Part shown: piece after piece, positions 988 to 27,283 of the stretch
Position numbering within the stretch: the first letter of the stretch is position 1
How the letters are laid out: the number at the start of each line of letters is the position of its first letter
Source of the DNA: a phage
Assembly (NCBI GenBank): GCA_025829515.1
Contig: GCA_025829515.1_4865.2
Length of the DNA: 54,940 bases
Strand: one strand, 5' to 3'
The notes under the pieces: generated by a model
Databases searched by the model: none
What the model was told of the DNA's origin: nothing
Seen by the model: only the letters and a program-made list of their open reading frames with translations
Program-made: the position numbers and the translations under genes

Positions 988-3099
988 ATGATACTGCGAA
1001 AAAACGATTGGCGACACTATCCGGGGGCGATTGTTGACGATGTCACACCAAACGTCCACTTCCTTCAATTCGCCACAACACTACAAGGATTAGGTGTCCA
1101 GCATTGGTACGTCCACCTGGCATTACACAATCCCGAACTCCGTGGTGTTGATCCGTTTAGCCCGGATTTAACACTCGAACAAAAAGCGATGATTGTTACG
1201 GAGTGTGCGGAAAACCCATGGTACTTCTTCCGTGAGTGTGTCCGGGTCCCTGCGGATGGTGTAAAGAACGGGATGCCGTTTCGTCTAGACCGCGGTAACT
1301 TTTCGATGTATTGGATTTTCTTCAACAACATCGACGCCGCTATCGAGTTTCTCCGTCAGCATGGTAAGACTGTCGGGATGTCCGCATTGCTATTGTGGCT
1401 GATGCGCTTCCTGGAGAACTCACGTACGATTCTTATCACGAAGGGTCCTGCCCTGCGTGAAGAAACTATCAACAAAATGAAACAACTGCGTAACGCGTTA
1501 CCGGATTATCTCTGGCCTCATCACCCGGACGATCCTGATAACCGTGAGACATTTGCATGTCTAGCGCAGGGTAACAAACTTATCACCGGCATCGGTCAAA
1601 ACGATAAGGAAGCTGCGAACGGGGTAGGCCGTGGACTCACAGCCGGACGCCTGTTCTCGGATGAAGGACCGTTTACCAACAACATCCACCATATCCTCCC
1701 TGCTGCACTAGCATCGGGTACCGCGGCGCGTCGTATTAACGAAGCCGAAGGTGTTCCATACGGCAACGTCTTCGCAACAACGCCTGGGGATTTGGCGACA
1801 GAAGAAGGCGAGTACATGTACAGCCTGATGACGTCGGGGATTTCGTGGGATGAACGGTATATCGACATTCCGACTCGTGCACAACTGATTGACATGATTC
1901 GCAAAGGCTCTACTGCGAAGATTCCACGTATCATGTTCTACGTGAAATACAACCACCGCCAACTCGGTACCACGGACGAAGAACTCGCAGATATGATTGC
2001 GAACGCCCCAGGTACACCAGACCAAATCCGCCGTGACTTCGGTGGTGAATGGACAACCGGTGGTTACAACAAACCGTTCTCAGGCGATGATGCAAGACGT
2101 ATGAACGCCTCGCGTATTCGGGCAGCACAGAAAATTATCTCTGCTTCCAACTACGTAACGGATTGGTATTACACTGAAGAGCAGATGCTGGTTAAAATGC
2201 AAGACCGCCACATCATCGGTTTGGATACTTCCGAAGCCGTGGGGCGGGACGCCATTGCCATGTCAATCGTCAACTCTGTCACTGCCGAATATGCCGGCAA
2301 GCTCACCGTGAACGAAACAAACGTCATCGGGTTTGCGATTCACTTAGCAGACTTCATGATCGAATATCCGAACACGGTACTCATTCTGGAACGACGGTCT
2401 ACCGGCTCCTCGGTAGCAGATGCCATTATACTGCAGCTGCAATCTAAGGTTCGCGATTTGCATCGTCGTTTGTACGTGAAAGTGACCCAGGATTACTCAA
2501 GGAACGATGAACTTTACAAAGAGTTCCATCGTGGCCCTGTGGGCAGTCCAGAGCGCTTCTGGGACAAATTCCGTAAATACATCGGTTTCTCAACCGACCA
2601 GGATAAACGCCGTAAGTTGTATGGTGAAGTATTTACCACGGCGTTGCGTCTTTCTGCGGACTTACTGCGGTCAGGCGAATTGATCGACCAAATCCTCGGT
2701 CTCGTCGAACGAAACGGGCGCATAGACCACCGTGCATCCGGTCACGATGACCTGGTAATATCCTGGCTCCTGGCAATGTGGTTACTTCTGTTCGGCAACA
2801 ACTTAGGCCACTACGGTATAAGTAACAGCCGACTGATGATGCGCAACCGCAATATGCTCGGGGGCATGGCAGGTGAATTCGATGAAGAGGCTGCAGTCGA
2901 GGAAGAAGAAAAGCAACAACAACTGATGGGGCAAATTGAAACGATGATTAGGCAGAGTCAAGTTGTAGCCGACCCGGTACAACAGCTCATGTACAAGAAT
3001 CGTATTCAAGCGCTCGTCTCTCAACTCAACACTGACGTTCGTAACGTCGCATCGATGGAAAGCTTGAAAGAGCTAATCCAACGACAGAGGATGAAGTGA
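988..3099 (+). CDS. putative terminase large subunit (ATPase plus RNase H-like nuclease)
   Basis: 703-aa ORF; terminase-type deviant Walker A (LRQHGKT); C-terminal motifs GLDTSEAVGRD and GHDDLVISWLLA resemble terminase nuclease Asp motifs; ATG preceded by GGAG. Confidence 0.6.
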   Translation: MILRKNDWRHYPGAIVDDVTPNVHFLQFATTLQGLGVQHWYVHLALHNPELRGVDPFSPDLTLEQKAMIVTECAENPWYFFRECVRVPADGVKNGMPFRLDRGNFSMYWIFFNNIDAAIEFLRQHGKTVGMSALLLWLMRFLENSRTILITKGPALREETINKMKQLRNALPDYLWPHHPDDPDNRETFACLAQGNKLITGIGQNDKEAANGVGRGLTAGRLFSDEGPFTNNIHHILPAALASGTAARRINEAEGVPYGNVFATTPGDLATEEGEYMYSLMTSGISWDERYIDIPTRAQLIDMIRKGSTAKIPRIMFYVKYNHRQLGTTDEELADMIANAPGTPDQIRRDFGGEWTTGGYNKPFSGDDARRMNASRIRAAQKIISASNYVTDWYYTEEQMLVKMQDRHIIGLDTSEAVGRDAIAMSIVNSVTAEYAGKLTVNETNVIGFAIHLADFMIEYPNTVLILERRSTGSSVADAIILQLQSKVRDLHRRLYVKVTQDYSRNDELYKEFHRGPVGSPERFWDKFRKYIGFSTDQDKRRKLYGEVFTTALRLSADLLRSGELIDQILGLVERNGRIDHRASGHDDLVISWLLAMWLLLFGNNLGHYGISNSRLMMRNRNMLGGMAGEFDEEAAVEEEEKQQQLMGQIETMIRQSQVVADPVQQLMYKNRIQALVSQLNTDVRNVASMESLKELIQRQRMK

Positions 3100-3338
3100 T
3101 GACTCAACTCTACTACGCAATCGTGCTGGTAATGTGGATTTGCCTATACTTTGGCTTACGCCACACCATCGAAGTAATACGCATACACGCACAAAGCCAC
3201 GATGTCTGCACACGCACAATGCGGCTCGGACAGATTATCTGTAGCTTTGGCGTATTGCTTATCGGTGGACTATCGACCGCGGGGCTACACGTTGTGTATA
3301 CCCTACATCAAGTTGCCGTATCGGGAGCACTCGCCTGA
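3096..3338 (+). CDS. small hydrophobic protein (probable membrane protein)
   Basis: 80-aa ORF, ATGA overlap with the upstream stop, two hydrophobic segments, followed by a terminator. Confidence 0.4.
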   Translation: MMTQLYYAIVLVMWICLYFGLRHTIEVIRIHAQSHDVCTRTMRLGQIICSFGVLLIGGLSTAGLHVVYTLHQVAVSGALA

Positions 3339-9435: not shown

Positions 9436-9511
9436 AGGAAAGTGACGCAATTGGTAGCGTACCGGTCTCCAAAACCGGCTGTTTAGAGTTCGAGTCTCTA
9501 CTTTCCTGCCA
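9436..9511 (+). tRNA. tRNA-Trp (anticodon CCA)
   Basis: Hand-folded cloverleaf: acceptor aggaaag/ctttcct, D-stem acgc/gcgt, anticodon stem ccggt/accgg with loop ctCCAaa, 5-nt variable loop, T-arm tagag-ttcgagt-ctcta, discriminator G and encoded CCA. Confidence 0.8.
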
Positions 9512-10865: not shown

Positions 10866-10935
10866 GGCTTTGTAGCTCAGGTAGGTAGAGCAACCTCTTC
10901 GAGGAAGGTCGCCGGTTCGAGTCCGGTCAAAGCAA
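10866..10935 (+). tRNA. tRNA-like element with canonical acceptor, D and T arms but a truncated anticodon arm (possible pseudo-tRNA)
   Basis: tagctcaggtaggtagagc D-arm and gccggttcgagtccggt T-arm are tRNA-typical, but only 14 nt (aacctcttcgagga) lie where an 18-nt anticodon arm should be; G1-A72 mismatch. Confidence 0.4.
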
Positions 10936-11009
10936 GAGCAGCGAAGTTAGAGGAATTAACACCCGACTCATAATCGGATATTTCGACGGTTCGAATCCGT
11001 CCGTTTGCT
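10936..11009 (+). tRNA. tRNA-like element, possible tRNA-Met/Ile2 (anticodon CAU), non-canonical D and acceptor arms
   Basis: T-arm gacgg-ttcgaat-ccgtc and anticodon arm cccga-ctCATaa-tcgga are recognisable; acceptor pairing imperfect and the 5' boundary is uncertain. Confidence 0.35.
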
Positions 11010-23395: not shown

Positions 23396-25249
23396 ATGGT
23401 AAAAATCGTTGACTCTAACAACAACGCTCAGCAGAACAACACTCAGACTCAAGACACCGCACCACTGGGCGGTCTGGGCAACGAGACTGTAAAAGTGCAA
23501 ACTGCTGTGCCGGGTACTTCTACTGTCAGCCAATTCGATAACGCATTTGGCATCCGCAACATCAGCACCTATGCAATGCACTTCGTCAACCTCCTGGACG
23601 AGCTGAAGAAAAGCAACGAATACCTCAACGCATTCCGCTGGGGCACCATCGCTGGCGTGGGTAACGAAATGGGTTCCGCGGCGTATGTCGCAGGCCAATG
23701 GCAGGGCCACTGGCTGTATGGTATCATCTTCTTTGAACGCGGTCAGTCTCTGCGTCTGAAAGAAACTACCAACAACGGCCAGGAAGACTACTACACCATC
23801 ACTGAACTGTTCAACAAAGACGTGCTGGCAGTAGTACAGAAAAACATCATGGAAGCGCATGGTCTGACCAATGCGAACTTCATGATCATCAACTCCGTAC
23901 CAGACCTGGGTAAAGTTCTGGATGCTGAGTGGGCACGTACTCTGATGGGTCAGATGATGATGGGCATCTTCGGTCGTATCGCAGGCTACCTGGGTACGCT
24001 GAACCTGCGTAAGCATGACCGTTATCAGGCTGCAGTAATGCCGCTGGAAGATGGTGCGGTTGTGGATGCTAACGGCCACGCACAACGTGCTGATTTCGCA
24101 ATCACCGTTGAGCACAGCCCAAGCAACGTATCCGACGCCACTCCGACTCTGCTGGACACCAATCAGGTACAGGTGTATCCGCGTGTATCCGGTACTGGTT
24201 TCGTCAACATGCGTTTCACCGGTCAGAAGCCTGTCGTTAACGGCGTCTACGACCTGAAACAGCTGCAGGCTGAAATCGTAGTAAGTCTGGTCGATTCTCA
24301 AACTGAAGGTGCAATGGCACCGTATGAACGTCAACTGCTGCTGCTGGCTGCATTTGCAGAAATCGCGGCAATCGGTGGCTGGCGTGACCTGTTTGTGAAA
24401 CGTCTGAACAAACAAGATCGCAAGTTCTCCCGTGTGGCAGAATACCTGTCCTGGGGTGCTGACGCTCGTCCTGATGTATCCAAAATCGACGGTAGCCGTG
24501 AAGCTATCGAAGGTTGCCTGGATATGTTCGCACCGCGTGAAGCAGCACTGGTAGTTAGCCATCGTGCCGGTAACGGTCTGGGTGGTCTGTCTACTATGCT
24601 GTCTGAAATTGCGGTCGGTTACGACAACTCTCTGAAACAGCTGCTCGCTATTCTGAATTCCATGTCCCCGCGTGATCAGAACGGCGAAGTTGTTGCAGCG
24701 ACCAGCTTCACTGCAGTATTTGCTTCTGCACTGAAAGCACAGCTGGGCGATGCCTTCAATGGTACCATCCATTGCAGCCACATCGTGAAAGCAGCCGTAC
24801 CGACTGTTTCCGGTGTTTACACCGGTACTGCACAGAAACGTAGCTTCCAGGATATGGACCTGATTTCCGTTGTTACCAAACTGGGTGATAACGCGAACGA
24901 CGTCTATAGCTACCTGAACGCACAGTCCTACAGCCACCGTGAACTGAACGAGCGTCAACAGCGTATCTACATGCTGAAACTGGCCGCTTCTCTGTTCGCA
25001 TCCAAAGCACCGCAAGCTACCGGTGAATCTCTGGATATGGCTATCAACCCGATCTTCGGTAAATGCCTGCTGGACTTCGTCCGTAACAACTGCACCTGGT
25101 CTATGACTGGTGTAAATGCCTACAACACGATGGCGACCTCTCTGTTCTTCAACAACGGTGGGGAAGACTTCACGCTGTCTGGCAACGGCCTGTCTGCAAG
25201 CGGTTCCGATTTCGGTCTGGGCGTGTCTCTGAGCAACTTCAAACTGTAA
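23396..25249 (+). CDS. abundant 617-aa protein; candidate phage-nucleus shell protein (chimallin-like) by synteny, alternatively a major structural protein
   Basis: Strongly biased codon usage (ctg, cgt, ggt, aaa) implies very high expression; AAGGA RBS; lies immediately upstream of the RNAP beta' N gene, as chimallin does in phiKZ; no sequence-level confirmation. Confidence 0.6.
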   Translation: MVKIVDSNNNAQQNNTQTQDTAPLGGLGNETVKVQTAVPGTSTVSQFDNAFGIRNISTYAMHFVNLLDELKKSNEYLNAFRWGTIAGVGNEMGSAAYVAGQWQGHWLYGIIFFERGQSLRLKETTNNGQEDYYTITELFNKDVLAVVQKNIMEAHGLTNANFMIINSVPDLGKVLDAEWARTLMGQMMMGIFGRIAGYLGTLNLRKHDRYQAAVMPLEDGAVVDANGHAQRADFAITVEHSPSNVSDATPTLLDTNQVQVYPRVSGTGFVNMRFTGQKPVVNGVYDLKQLQAEIVVSLVDSQTEGAMAPYERQLLLLAAFAEIAAIGGWRDLFVKRLNKQDRKFSRVAEYLSWGADARPDVSKIDGSREAIEGCLDMFAPREAALVVSHRAGNGLGGLSTMLSEIAVGYDNSLKQLLAILNSMSPRDQNGEVVAATSFTAVFASALKAQLGDAFNGTIHCSHIVKAAVPTVSGVYTGTAQKRSFQDMDLISVVTKLGDNANDVYSYLNAQSYSHRELNERQQRIYMLKLAASLFASKAPQATGESLDMAINPIFGKCLLDFVRNNCTWSMTGVNAYNTMATSLFFNNGGEDFTLSGNGLSASGSDFGLGVSLSNFKL

Positions 25250-25331: not shown

Positions 25332-27283
25332 GTGAGAAAGGTACCAAAATTCTACGGAATATCCGGCCGGTTGGTTAGTCAGGATAACTATTTGTCCGAT
25401 TTGCAAATAGAAGCTGCAGCCAAAGGTATTAAACCACCCACTATTATTAACGATGTCGCCGTTAACGGGGATGCTATCGAGGTTGCTGAACTTATCGATC
25501 GCATGGTACAGAACAGAATCGTTGACGAAGAACTGAACTCTGCACCGATTTGTAGTTTGGATTGTCCGGCACCGATCGCGCATCGTTACAATCTCGGTTG
25601 TAAGTGTCCGACGTGTGGCTATGTTGTAACTGAACATCGAATTGAATCCGATGTCTGGTTACGTGCACCCGATGAAATGGGTAACTTCGTCAACCCACGA
25701 TTCTGGGCAATGTTCAATGCTTTCTTTAATAGCAAGTTGAAGAAGTTTGAACGTAACAAGGTCACTATCGAACGCGGTAATGACTTGATGATGTGGATGA
25801 TTGACCCGTATTACCGTATAGAAGAACCAGACGGTAAACGCGCACATGCTGTGAAACGTGTATTGGAAGAACATGGTTTCGTTCGTGGCTTGCGCAATCT
25901 GGTTGATAACCACGTTAGTATCTTTAACATCCTTACCACGCCAGAAGCCTGGAAGGAAATCTTCGCACCTAATCGGCATAACGCCGCTGAAGGTGAACGC
26001 TTACGTTTACAATGGAAGGAGCTATTCGAAACGCAACGTCACGCATTCTTCCCAAGACACTTACCGCTAATCTCCTCTAAACTTATCGTTACTGAGGAAG
26101 GTCGTCGTGGTGTCATGGTAGACCCAGTGTTCACGGGTGCTATTGATGCGGTGAAAAATATCGCGTTGCTCTATACGCGGCGTAAAGCGATCGAACCACG
26201 TTTTCTGATTAGTCGTGCTTTGAAGGCGAACCGTCAGCTAACGTACTTCCACATGGACTTCCGTCGTGAGTCTATGGAAGGTAAACCGGGTGACTATCGT
26301 GCGAAATTGGGTTCTACCCATATCCCGTTCGGTGGTCGTGCAACCATCTCACCTATCTCAGAACCACATGATGCCTGGAAGTTAAAAGCACCATGGCGTT
26401 GGATGGTTGGGTTGATGTCGACCCACATCGAGAACAAACTGCTACGACGCGGTTATTCGTCACGGCAGTGTGAACGTATCGTTGCGAAAGCGGCAATGCA
26501 GTATGACCCGCTTGTAGATGAAATCTTTAAAGAACTGATTCGTGAATCCCCAGGCGGTCTTGGGATCATGGTCATACCGTTACGTAACCCAACGCTGGTA
26601 CAGTTGTCTATTCAAACGCTGTACATCGATGAAGTTGTTACCGATGTTAACCAGTGTTCGCTGCGTATCTCTGACCGTGTGATCAAGATGGCTAACGGTT
26701 CGAAAAGAGCCCCATCGGACGGGAAACCTCTGATGCGTATTCTCCTGAAATGCTGGGAAACCCTAAAGCGTATCTACCAGAAATGGGGACGAAAGTCTGA
26801 AACAACAGATACGATGACCTACGCTAAACAATACTGCTAACGGTTGTGATAATGGGTAATCAGCAGCGAAGCCTCGTGAGAGGAACGTTCAACGACTATC
26901 GCTGAAATGCGAGTAGGGGTCCCAGTGGACTTCGAAGTGGGAGAACACCTAAGGCGATAGCTATGGTGAAGATATAGTCTGTGCCTTATCGAGAGATAAG
27001 GAGGGTGTCTTAGCACACCTGCTGTATACGGAAACGGTATACGGTGGACAAACAGGATTTCGATGGCGACCAGTTCCAGGTACGTTTGCCAGTCGATGAA
27101 ACTGAGATGAAGTTGGCGCTCCAATTCCGTCCAGATAACGGCTTTATGTCTTCTACTGATGTGGACCGCGTAGAACACGGCATGGTTTTACATAACGAGC
27201 TAATCAGTATGCAGAACCAGTTCCTTATTGAAGCAGATGAGGATGATGAAGAAGGCATTCCGTTGGAAGCGGTGATGGGCTAA
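25332..27283 (+). CDS. multisubunit RNA polymerase beta'-like N-terminal fragment, interrupted by a group I intron (exon 1 ~25332..26662, exon 2 ~27037..27283)
   Basis: Exon 1 has a beta'-type zinc ribbon (CSLDCPAPIAHRYNLGCKCPTCG), FRRESMEGK...GGRATISPISEP and IPLRNPTLVQLSIQ (cf. E. coli NRAPTLHRLGIQ); downstream frame encodes DFDGDQFQVRLPVDETEMKLALQF (cf. [26 protein letters not shown]); the two parts are in different frames ~370 nt apart and the second has no RBS. Confidence 0.65.
26663..27036 (+). ncRNA. putative ORF-less group I intron (boundaries +/- ~10 nt)
   Basis: Core elements in canonical order: P-like ggacgggaaa (26717-26727), Q-like aatcagcagcgaagcc (26858-26873), R-like gttcaacgactat (26887-26899), and aagatatagtc (26969-26979) identical to the Tetrahymena intron S element; gactat and atagtc can form P7; a U-ended exon 1 and G-ended intron restore the frame. 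Confidence 0.55.

Follow-up and report, generated by a model that had tools for sequence, protein, structure and literature searches.

Gene and intron at the locus

The 54,940-nucleotide stretch of phage DNA considered here (GenBank assembly GCA_025829515.1, contig GCA_025829515.1_4865.2), referred to as the window, carries an RNA polymerase gene of a jumbo phage in which a group I intron stands directly before the codons of the catalytic DFDGD motif. All parts of this locus lie on the + strand. Exon 1 (25332-26699) comprises 456 codons, ends in …ATG GCT AAC GGT (…MANG) and is colinear with nucleotides (nt) 1-1368 of the corresponding coding sequence (CDS) of phage SPN3US. Exon 2 (27056-27283) comprises 75 codons and a stop and is colinear with nt 1369-1596 of that sequence. 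The 356 nt between them (26700-27055) match the Rfam family RF00028, hold no open reading frame (ORF) and are missing as a block from intron-less alleles.

The closest record to about 2 kb around the intron is Escherichia phage vB_EcoM_EC001, with 99.5% identity. In total, 38 phage records match this query, and the group is that of the SPN3US-like jumbo phages (genus Seoulvirus). SPN3US, the type phage, and at least 20 further records align to this query as two pieces, with a span that is about 356 nt shorter. The interrupted gene is the counterpart of SPN3US_0023 (gp23), annotated as 'putative DNA-directed RNA polymerase beta subunit 1', which is a single uninterrupted CDS of 1596 nt and naturally intron-less. 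When 25332-26699 is joined to 27056-27283, an ORF of the same 1596 nt results, and its product of 531 amino acids (aa) differs from SPN3US gp23 at one residue of the 531 (Y431F).

The SPN3US alignment is colinear up to …AAG ATG GC(T/A) AA(C/T) GG(T/A) at 26699 and resumes with GAT TTC GAT GG(C/T) GAC at 27056, so that the insertion comprises 26700-27055. The intron is in phase 0, between a Gly codon and the first Asp codon, …MANG^DFDGD (the caret marks a junction here and below), and the codons of the motif, GAT TTC GAT GGC GAC (27056-27070), align to …NADFDGDQ of phiKZ gp55. The spliced DNA reads …GCTAACGGT^GATTTCGATGGC and the spliced product …NQCSLRISDRVIKMANG^DFDGDQ; the tryptic peptide across this junction would be MANGDFDGDQFQVR. 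A U (U26699) precedes the intron, whose last base is a G (G27055), the terminal or omega guanosine; it is the final inserted base relative to SPN3US. Both the U at position -1 and the 3' G are kept in seven of seven homologous introns.

The spliced protein matches PHROG 2987, 'RNA polymerase beta subunit', with an E-value of 9.8e-180, and the Pfam match of the gene to RNA_pol_Rpb1_2 is weak. In HMMER comparisons with solved structures the best match is phiKZ gp55 (PDB 7OGP_A, E 1.4e-38, residues 52-494), a chain deposited under the name PHIKZ055 plus PHIKZ056.1, and AR9 and bacterial beta' subunits give weaker matches. The gp55 alignment runs uninterrupted across the catalytic loop, which reads …IKMANGDFDGDQF in the spliced protein (…ANGDFDGDQ versus …PNADFDGDQ in gp55). 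The 7OGP_A and PHROG 2987 matches place the protein in the gp55 family, including the catalytic (N)ADFDGD loop. The catalytic fragment of the SPN3US virion RNA polymerase (vRNAP) is gp240 (PMC5105663), which points to gp23 as the beta' N-terminal catalytic fragment of the non-virion RNA polymerase (nvRNAP). By homology with phiKZ gp55, the interrupted gene is thus assigned to the nvRNAP beta' N-terminal (catalytic) subunit, and its alignment to gp55 with NADFDGD suggests that it is essential in kind.

An earlier reading of the window from its letters alone (the sequence-only reading) had proposed a group I intron between the two ORFs of a beta'-like polymerase gene, directly before DFDGD and devoid of a homing-endonuclease ORF. 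These four points have stood. The intron is confirmed by an RF00028 score of 69.4 bits, by covariation and by the intron-less SPN3US allele, and the nature of the gene by the alignment of the spliced protein to beta' homologs. The first Asp codon does begin at 27056, and neither the read-through tail of exon 1 nor an antisense ORF matches any Pfam family.

Structure of the ribozyme

The RF00028 match, on the + strand at 26680-27001, exceeds the gathering score of 50 (E 1.3e-15), covers model positions 1-253 of 253, and is the sole one in the window, also at a relaxed threshold. The region folds better than 100 of 100 shuffles (z = -4.0). The structure was studied in an alignment of the window intron with six diverged copies, from SaP7, Proteus phage 7, VB_ZK_P1, phiKp_32, Vibrio phage 2 TSL-2019 and PDCC-1, which score 51.9-66.5 bits on RF00028, each above the gathering score. 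From this alignment RNAalifold independently recovered P1, P2, P3, P4, P5 with three extensions, P6, P7.1, P7.2, P8 and the P9 hairpins, with compensatory changes in 40 of 88 pairs. An explicit model in window coordinates, running from P1 to P9.2 and including the P3/P7 pseudoknot and P9.0, contains 17 helices without a single mismatch in the window. Standard pairs occupy 89.4% of the cells over the seven sequences, against 38-46% when the partners are slid by 1-3 columns, and both-sided (compensatory) changes occur in 42 of the 101 model pairs, against 6-13 in the slid controls. None of 500 shuffles attained the observed values. P1, P2, P3, P4, the P7 of five base pairs (bp) and the P8 stem are 100% paired in all seven sequences.

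P1, GGU^UC-GAAAA-GAGCC (26697-26711), consists of three exon pairs and two intron pairs; it was also found by RNAalifold, and three of its five pairs show compensatory changes. The U26699•G26709 pair at the 5' splice site is invariant in seven of seven sequences, and its neighbours covary (GGU/GCC, GCU/GGC, GAU/GUC). P2 (26713-26735) is a hairpin of nine pairs, four of them compensatory, closed by a GAAA tetraloop. The 'P-like' string of the sequence-only reading, GGACGGGAAA, was misassigned, as it sits in this hairpin; the true 5' strand of P4 is UGCUGG (26751-26756), which pairs with 26860-26865. The Q-, R- and S-like strings had been placed correctly and correspond to P4'/P6, J6/7-P7 and J8/7-P7' in the Rfam alignment. 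P3 joins UUCUCCU (26740-26746) to GGGAGAA (26939-26945) by seven pairs, four of them compensatory.

Enclosed by P4 are P5 (26761-26763 with 26854-26856) and its extensions P5a (26769-26775 with 26807-26813), P5b, a GAAA hairpin (26788-26797), and P5c (26815-26846), the three extensions all with compensatory pairs. The P6/P6a hairpin (26866-26888) has a GUGA tetraloop and an outer stem that is 100% paired, and it is free of mismatches in the window. P7 pairs GACUA (26894-26898) with UAGUC (26975-26979) and thereby creates the pseudoknot that forms the guanosine-binding site; all five pairs are kept throughout, and at one of them SaP7 and Proteus phage 7 show a compensatory change from U-A to C-G. 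A P7 of six pairs, GACTAT/ATAGTC, had been proposed. Five of these are conserved, and the sixth (26899-26974) was dropped, being kept in the window alone (14% paired). P7.1 (26900-26911) and P7.2 (26916-26933) show compensatory changes in two of three and five of seven pairs, respectively. These extra hairpins between P7 and P3' are a feature of subgroup IA in the Michel and Westhof scheme. P8 (26946-26968) has a GAUA tetraloop and four outer pairs that are 100% paired, two of them compensatory. It is followed by J8/7 and the 3' strand of P7, which make up the 'S' element AAGAUAUAGUC (26969-26979), in agreement with the Rfam consensus gAAGAUAUAGUCu.

Toward the 3' end lie P9.0 (26980-26982 with 27052-27054), P9 with a GAGA loop (26984-27001), P9.1 (27003-27020) and P9.2 (27022-27044), all without mismatches in the window. 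Across the lineages the P9.0-P9.2 region is 71-87% paired, with a poorer alignment there for the Vibrio clade. GNRA tetraloops are reported at L2, L5b, L6, L8 and L9. A longer P1, in which exon GAUGG (26687-26691) pairs with CCAUC (26712-26716) as in the first hairpin of the Rfam alignment, was rejected because CCAUC lies in the covarying P2 and the exon pairing is missing in the Raoultella and Vibrio copies. A tentative P10 can be drawn between UCGAAA (26700-26705) and UUUCGA (27058-27063). The Rfam score, the P3-P4-P6-P7-P8 core with its P3/P7 pseudoknot, the U•G pair in P1 and the terminal G are those of a group I intron, and guanosine-dependent self-splicing of the window copy would be the prediction.

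Splicing and alternative explanations

Very probably, the nvRNAP beta' N-terminal gene is interrupted at 26700-27055 by a functional group I intron of IA type that lacks an endonuclease. Splicing would follow the standard group I mechanism. A pre-mRNA made by the vRNAP would fold into P1-P9, and an exogenous guanosine bound at P7 would attack after U26699, held in P1 by its U•G wobble with G26709. The freed 3'-OH of exon 1 would then attack after G27055, possibly aided by P10, and the ligated exons would encode the 531-aa protein, its catalytic motif intact. The intron may be retained because any loss that was not precise would ruin an essential active site. At least six viable isolates carry this allele of an essential-type gene, which argues that splicing is efficient.

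Several points weigh against this reading. Splicing in the window phage is a prediction from sequence, and a study by ONT-cappable-seq found no spliced reads for the phiKZ introns under its conditions (PMC10914365). The seven aligned sequences represent four independent lineages, three of them as near-duplicate pairs, and the shuffle statistics consequently overstate independence. P1 is short, with just three exon nucleotides paired, and P10 is not conserved across lineages. The intron is best called IA-like, as its type was read from P7.1/P7.2 and the textbook classification rather than from a subgroup-specific model.

Some of these points would also fit a real group I intron that has lost autocatalysis and can fold and splice only with the help of a protein from the host or the phage, or of exon-1 translation. 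The short P1 with three exon pairs and the phiKZ introns without spliced reads in one study (PMC10914365) would agree with such dependence, and T4 introns are cited in the same paper as requiring efficient translation for splicing in vivo (Sandegren and Sjoberg 2007). This is nevertheless unlikely for the window copy, in which the core helices are all intact, without mismatches, the five GNRA tetraloops are typical of self-folding introns, and the Rfam match spans the full length of the model.

Still less probable is a split gene without splicing, from which two polypeptides (25332-26840, 502 aa; 27044-27283, 79 aa) would be made and then assemble. Both ORFs do exist, two CDSs are annotated in the records of EC001 (as 'beta subunit 1' and 'beta subunit 2'), SPLA3 and SaP7, and jumbo phages naturally have their beta and beta' subunits split into several proteins (PMC7598289). 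However, the spacer between the ORFs is a complete, covarying group I ribozyme, and the position of the break is the one at which removing the spacer recreates the SPN3US protein to the residue. The exon-1 ORF reads through into the intron as far as 26840 (26700-26840, 46 codons and TAA), with a translation that runs …SKRAPSDGKPLMR, and the first 12 nt of the GTG ORF at 27044 are intronic. For the 46-residue tail and the four leading residues of the second ORF, the intron-less protein offers nothing homologous and Pfam no match. Moreover, a split into two polypeptides would part the catalytic loop from the double-psi beta-barrel.

The group I intron with exon borders at 26699 and 27056 is to be preferred also over the borders of the sequence-only reading (26663-27036), which lie too far upstream by 37 nt at the 5' junction and 19 nt at the 3' junction and which overstate the read-through of exon 1 as 59 codons. 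Splicing after U26662 and G27036 would satisfy the U…G rule and keep the frame (1331 + 247 nt = 526 codons), so that frame restoration, although correctly foreseen, also fits the wrong peptide, …NQCSL^YTVDKQDFDGD, which lacks RISDRVIKMANG and gains YTVDKQ. These junctions can be set aside, since the intron-less SPN3US gene keeps its colinearity over 26663-26699 (RISDRVIKMANG) and contains nothing that corresponds to 27037-27055, the conserved U•G of P1 falls at 26699 and not at 26662, and the phiKZ gp55 alignment is free of gaps in this region.

Three allelic states in the SPN3US group

In the SPN3US group the insertion site occurs in three states: empty, with a 356-nt intron lacking an endonuclease, and with a 1404-nt intron that encodes an HNH/NUMOD1 endonuclease. 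The site is empty in SPN3US, SPLA1a, MET_P1_082_240, SEGD1, SPFM17 and many other SPFM phages. The 356-nt intron is present with 98.6-99.7% identity in EC001, Lh1B, 1252, JN03, SPLA3 and SPLA5c, six independently isolated, viable phages. The 1404-nt intron occupies the identical position in SaP7 and Proteus phage 7, and the ORF in its P1 loop (288-332 aa) matches NUMOD1 (E 7.8e-15), HNH_3 and PHROG 59, 'HNH endonuclease' (E 6.6e-29). The ribozymes of SaP7 and the window are about 79% identical and the exons about 98%; the SaP7 and window introns therefore represent distinct lineages and not a parent and its deletion derivative. The ribozyme figure is a BLAST identity, used in preference to global-alignment identities of the core, which are inflated by free end gaps.

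All intron-plus alleles read GCT AAC GGT before the junction and all close empty alleles GCA AAT GGA; the empty site of SPN3US gp23 is GCAAATGGA^GATTTCGATGG. The three synonymous differences, at -7, -4 and -1, are perfectly linked to the presence of the intron in 11 alleles, and the change at -1 provides the U required by P1. The exon background is a mosaic in which the window differs from the empty alleles of SPLA1a and SPFM17 at 15 positions and from the intron-plus allele of SPLA3 at 19. The next exon differences lie at distances of more than 150 nt on the upstream side and 12 nt on the downstream side. The linked changes would fit an intron gained through homing or recombination in which only a very short tract was co-converted, selection that favoured a spliceable junction, or a combination of the two.

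Of the properties expected of a mobile intron, a presence/absence polymorphism and linked flanking changes of the kind that co-conversion would leave were found. An intron-encoded endonuclease was not: 26700-27055 contains no ORF with a Pfam match, and L1 has 5 nt. Having no ORF, the window copy cannot home by itself. The history of the lineage would then be one of mobility directed at the DNA encoding NADFDGD in nvRNAP beta' genes of jumbo phages, with sister introns carrying HNH/NUMOD1 in the P1 loop. The copy in the window would probably spread only by recombination or with the endonuclease of a co-infecting relative.

One record of the group stands apart. SPFM1 (LR535901.1, 224415-227614) contains the SaP7-like junction strings GGT^AAAAGT and ACAAACAG^GATTTT in an inconsistent order and matches in many short BLAST pieces, and a search of this region against Rfam gave no match. 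Several SPFM records match in 26-28 pieces. The oddities of SPFM1 look like a problem of assembly or sequence quality and not like biology, and it was treated as a low-quality record.

The catalytic motif as an insertion site in other jumbo phages

Related RF00028 introns, all above the gathering score, are found at the same motif of this gene, a few nucleotides apart at most, in Raoultella, Klebsiella, Vibrio and Photobacterium phages and in phiKZ. The junction of phiKZ is KAPN^ADFDGD, with the gp56 HNH endonuclease inside the intron (RF00028, 75.6 bits). In the window, in SaP7 and in the Raoultella and Klebsiella phages it falls after A or G and before DFDGD, and in the Vibrio and Photobacterium phages it is NAD^FDGD. 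The SaP7, phiKp_32 and phiKZ endonucleases are members of one HNH/NUMOD1 family but share just 24-37% identity.

The intron of Vibrio phage 2 TSL-2019 and Photobacterium phage PDCC-1 (locus 2455-2846) is inserted 3 nt downstream of the window site. Its L1 holds a hairpin of about 40 nt and no ORF, and a 6-bp P9.0 (AUCUAC/GUAGAU) directly precedes the terminal G. Raoultella phage VB_ZK_P1 (PV662128.1, 26200-26522) and Klebsiella phage phiKp_32 show a second insertion after a micro-exon of 12 nt, GATTTTGACGGT (DFDG), which splits the catalytic motif as FNA^DFDG^DTMY. This second insertion has 311 nt, follows a U, ends in G, has a possible P1 (CGGU^AA-ACGUA-UUGCCG) and folds with z = -3.5. An Rfam search with the VB_ZK_P1 copy gave no match at E <= 1, and partial relatives occur in unannotated parts of the Aeromonas jumbo phages CF8, ZPAH34 and PS1/PS2. 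It is probably a divergent group I intron missed by RF00028. KTN4 (KU521356.1, locus about 1925-3160) and other phiKZ-like phages, among them OMKO1, SL2 and fnug, have a further RF00028 intron, which scores 87.5 bits and contains an ORF (KTN4_075); it interrupts the homolog of gp55 at HRN^PTLQR, within the other beta' motif of high conservation, and is missing from phiKZ.

A tentative proposal, which goes well beyond the intron itself and is at present the less probable view, is that the allele of the window is protective. The endonuclease-less intron and the changes at -7, -4 and -1 would shield the nvRNAP gene from a co-infecting SaP7-like HNH endonuclease without the cost of a nuclease, and the intron would not be a mere decaying selfish element. 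As part of the same proposal, the approximately 12 nt encoding (N)ADFDGD would be a homing hotspot for multiple lineages, with at least four insertion points: N^A in phiKZ, A or G^D in the window and the Raoultella and Klebsiella phages, D^F in the Vibrio and Photobacterium phages, and DFDG^D for the second insertion. If this were true, the SPN3US group would be a natural three-allele system for tests of intron-mediated interference.

Annotation and other features of the window

No intron is annotated in MN445185, OM456492, MT679221, OR413581, PV662128, LC768500, NC_048747 or NC_048821. There the exons form independent CDSs that bear the names 'beta subunit 1/2', 'alpha subunit' or 'hypothetical protein' and include read-through tails; in EC001, SPLA3 and others the tail is annotated inside the CDS. 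In SEGD1 the intact gene is wholly unannotated. Altogether, at least nine GenBank records of jumbo phages mis-annotate an essential polymerase gene as two or three unrelated CDSs with junk C-terminal tails, and the corrected borders allow proper annotation of the 531-aa catalytic subunit.

The upstream neighbour of the gene (23396-25249, +) is an ORF of 617 aa that corresponds to SPN3US gp22 and to PHROG 8316, a family without an assigned function. In phiKZ and the Vibrio and Photobacterium phages a gene annotated 'nuclear shell protein' occupies that upstream position. The window ORF matches no PDB chain and has no detectable similarity to the C-terminus of phiKZ gp54, so that only its position is comparable. 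Elsewhere in the window, two adjacent Rfam tRNA matches on the + strand (10866-10935 and 10938-11009) score 40.9 and 30.6 bits (gathering score 29). ARAGORN called neither of them and reported only a tRNA-Trp(CCA) at 9436-9511. The anticodon loop of the match at 10866-10935 is shortened in the Rfam alignment, and the two matches may be degenerate or unusual tRNA genes.

Comparison with known systems

A literature search combining Seoulvirus and intron found no paper, and the window intron is an undescribed, mis-annotated instance of a well-known kind. Its nearest described counterpart is in phiKZ. For this phage the literature already describes introns in gp55 and gp180, as well as the endonucleases gp56, gp72 and gp179, as cited from Mesyanzhinov 2002 and Ceyssens 2014 in PMC11512511 and PMC10914365; the phiKZ gp55 intron is taken as known from such secondary citations and from the phiKZ sequence. 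In the PHIKZ055/PHIKZ056/PHIKZ056.1 region, as in the window, the intron interrupts the NADFDGD-coding stretch of the orthologous gene, follows a U and ends in G. The gene also has the same place after the one annotated 'nuclear shell protein', which the upstream ORF of the window matches by position only. In contrast to MANG^DFDGD, the phiKZ junction is one codon (3 nt) further upstream, the phiKZ intron carries the gp56 HNH endonuclease whereas the window intron has no ORF, and the host proteins are clearly divergent.

The introns of SaP7 and Proteus phage 7 share with the window copy the identical site, the flanking codons GCT AAC GGT and the architecture of the ribozyme. They differ in their length of 1404 nt, the HNH and NUMOD1 ORF in the P1 loop and a ribozyme that is only about 79% identical. 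Together with the empty alleles they make the SPN3US group a case in which all three stages of the homing cycle are present at one site, while the genomes share about 98-99% identity and are open to genetic work. The chief use of the locus lies in the corrected annotation and in a natural set of three alleles on which the dynamics of introns and endonucleases in nucleus-forming phages can be studied.

The T4 td, nrdB and sunY introns and the SPO1-type introns (IA2) resemble the window intron in residing in active-site codons of phage protein genes and in having P7.1/P7.2. The core similarity of the window intron in BLAST reaches records of Bacillus and Staphylococcus phages. The host genes are different, and the ORF of the window lineage, when present, lies in L1, unlike the endonuclease ORFs of T4-type introns, which are found in the loops of P6, P8 or P9.

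Birkholz et al. (Science 2024, PMC11620839) showed that the intron endonuclease gp210 of PhiPA3, an I-HmuI-like HNH enzyme associated with the vRNAP beta gene (gp211/209), mediates interference competition with phiKZ. As in the window, a group I intron is there placed beside the conserved catalytic aspartates of a multisubunit RNA polymerase gene of a jumbo phage. The PhiPA3 case differs in concerning the virion polymerase, its beta subunit and another site, and in having an endonuclease where the window intron has none. SPN3US has an amber-mutant system (PMC5105663), and its group would be convenient for testing intron endonucleases as weapons between co-infecting nucleus-forming phages. The window intron joins these systems as a further indication that introns repeatedly target the active-site codons of polymerases.

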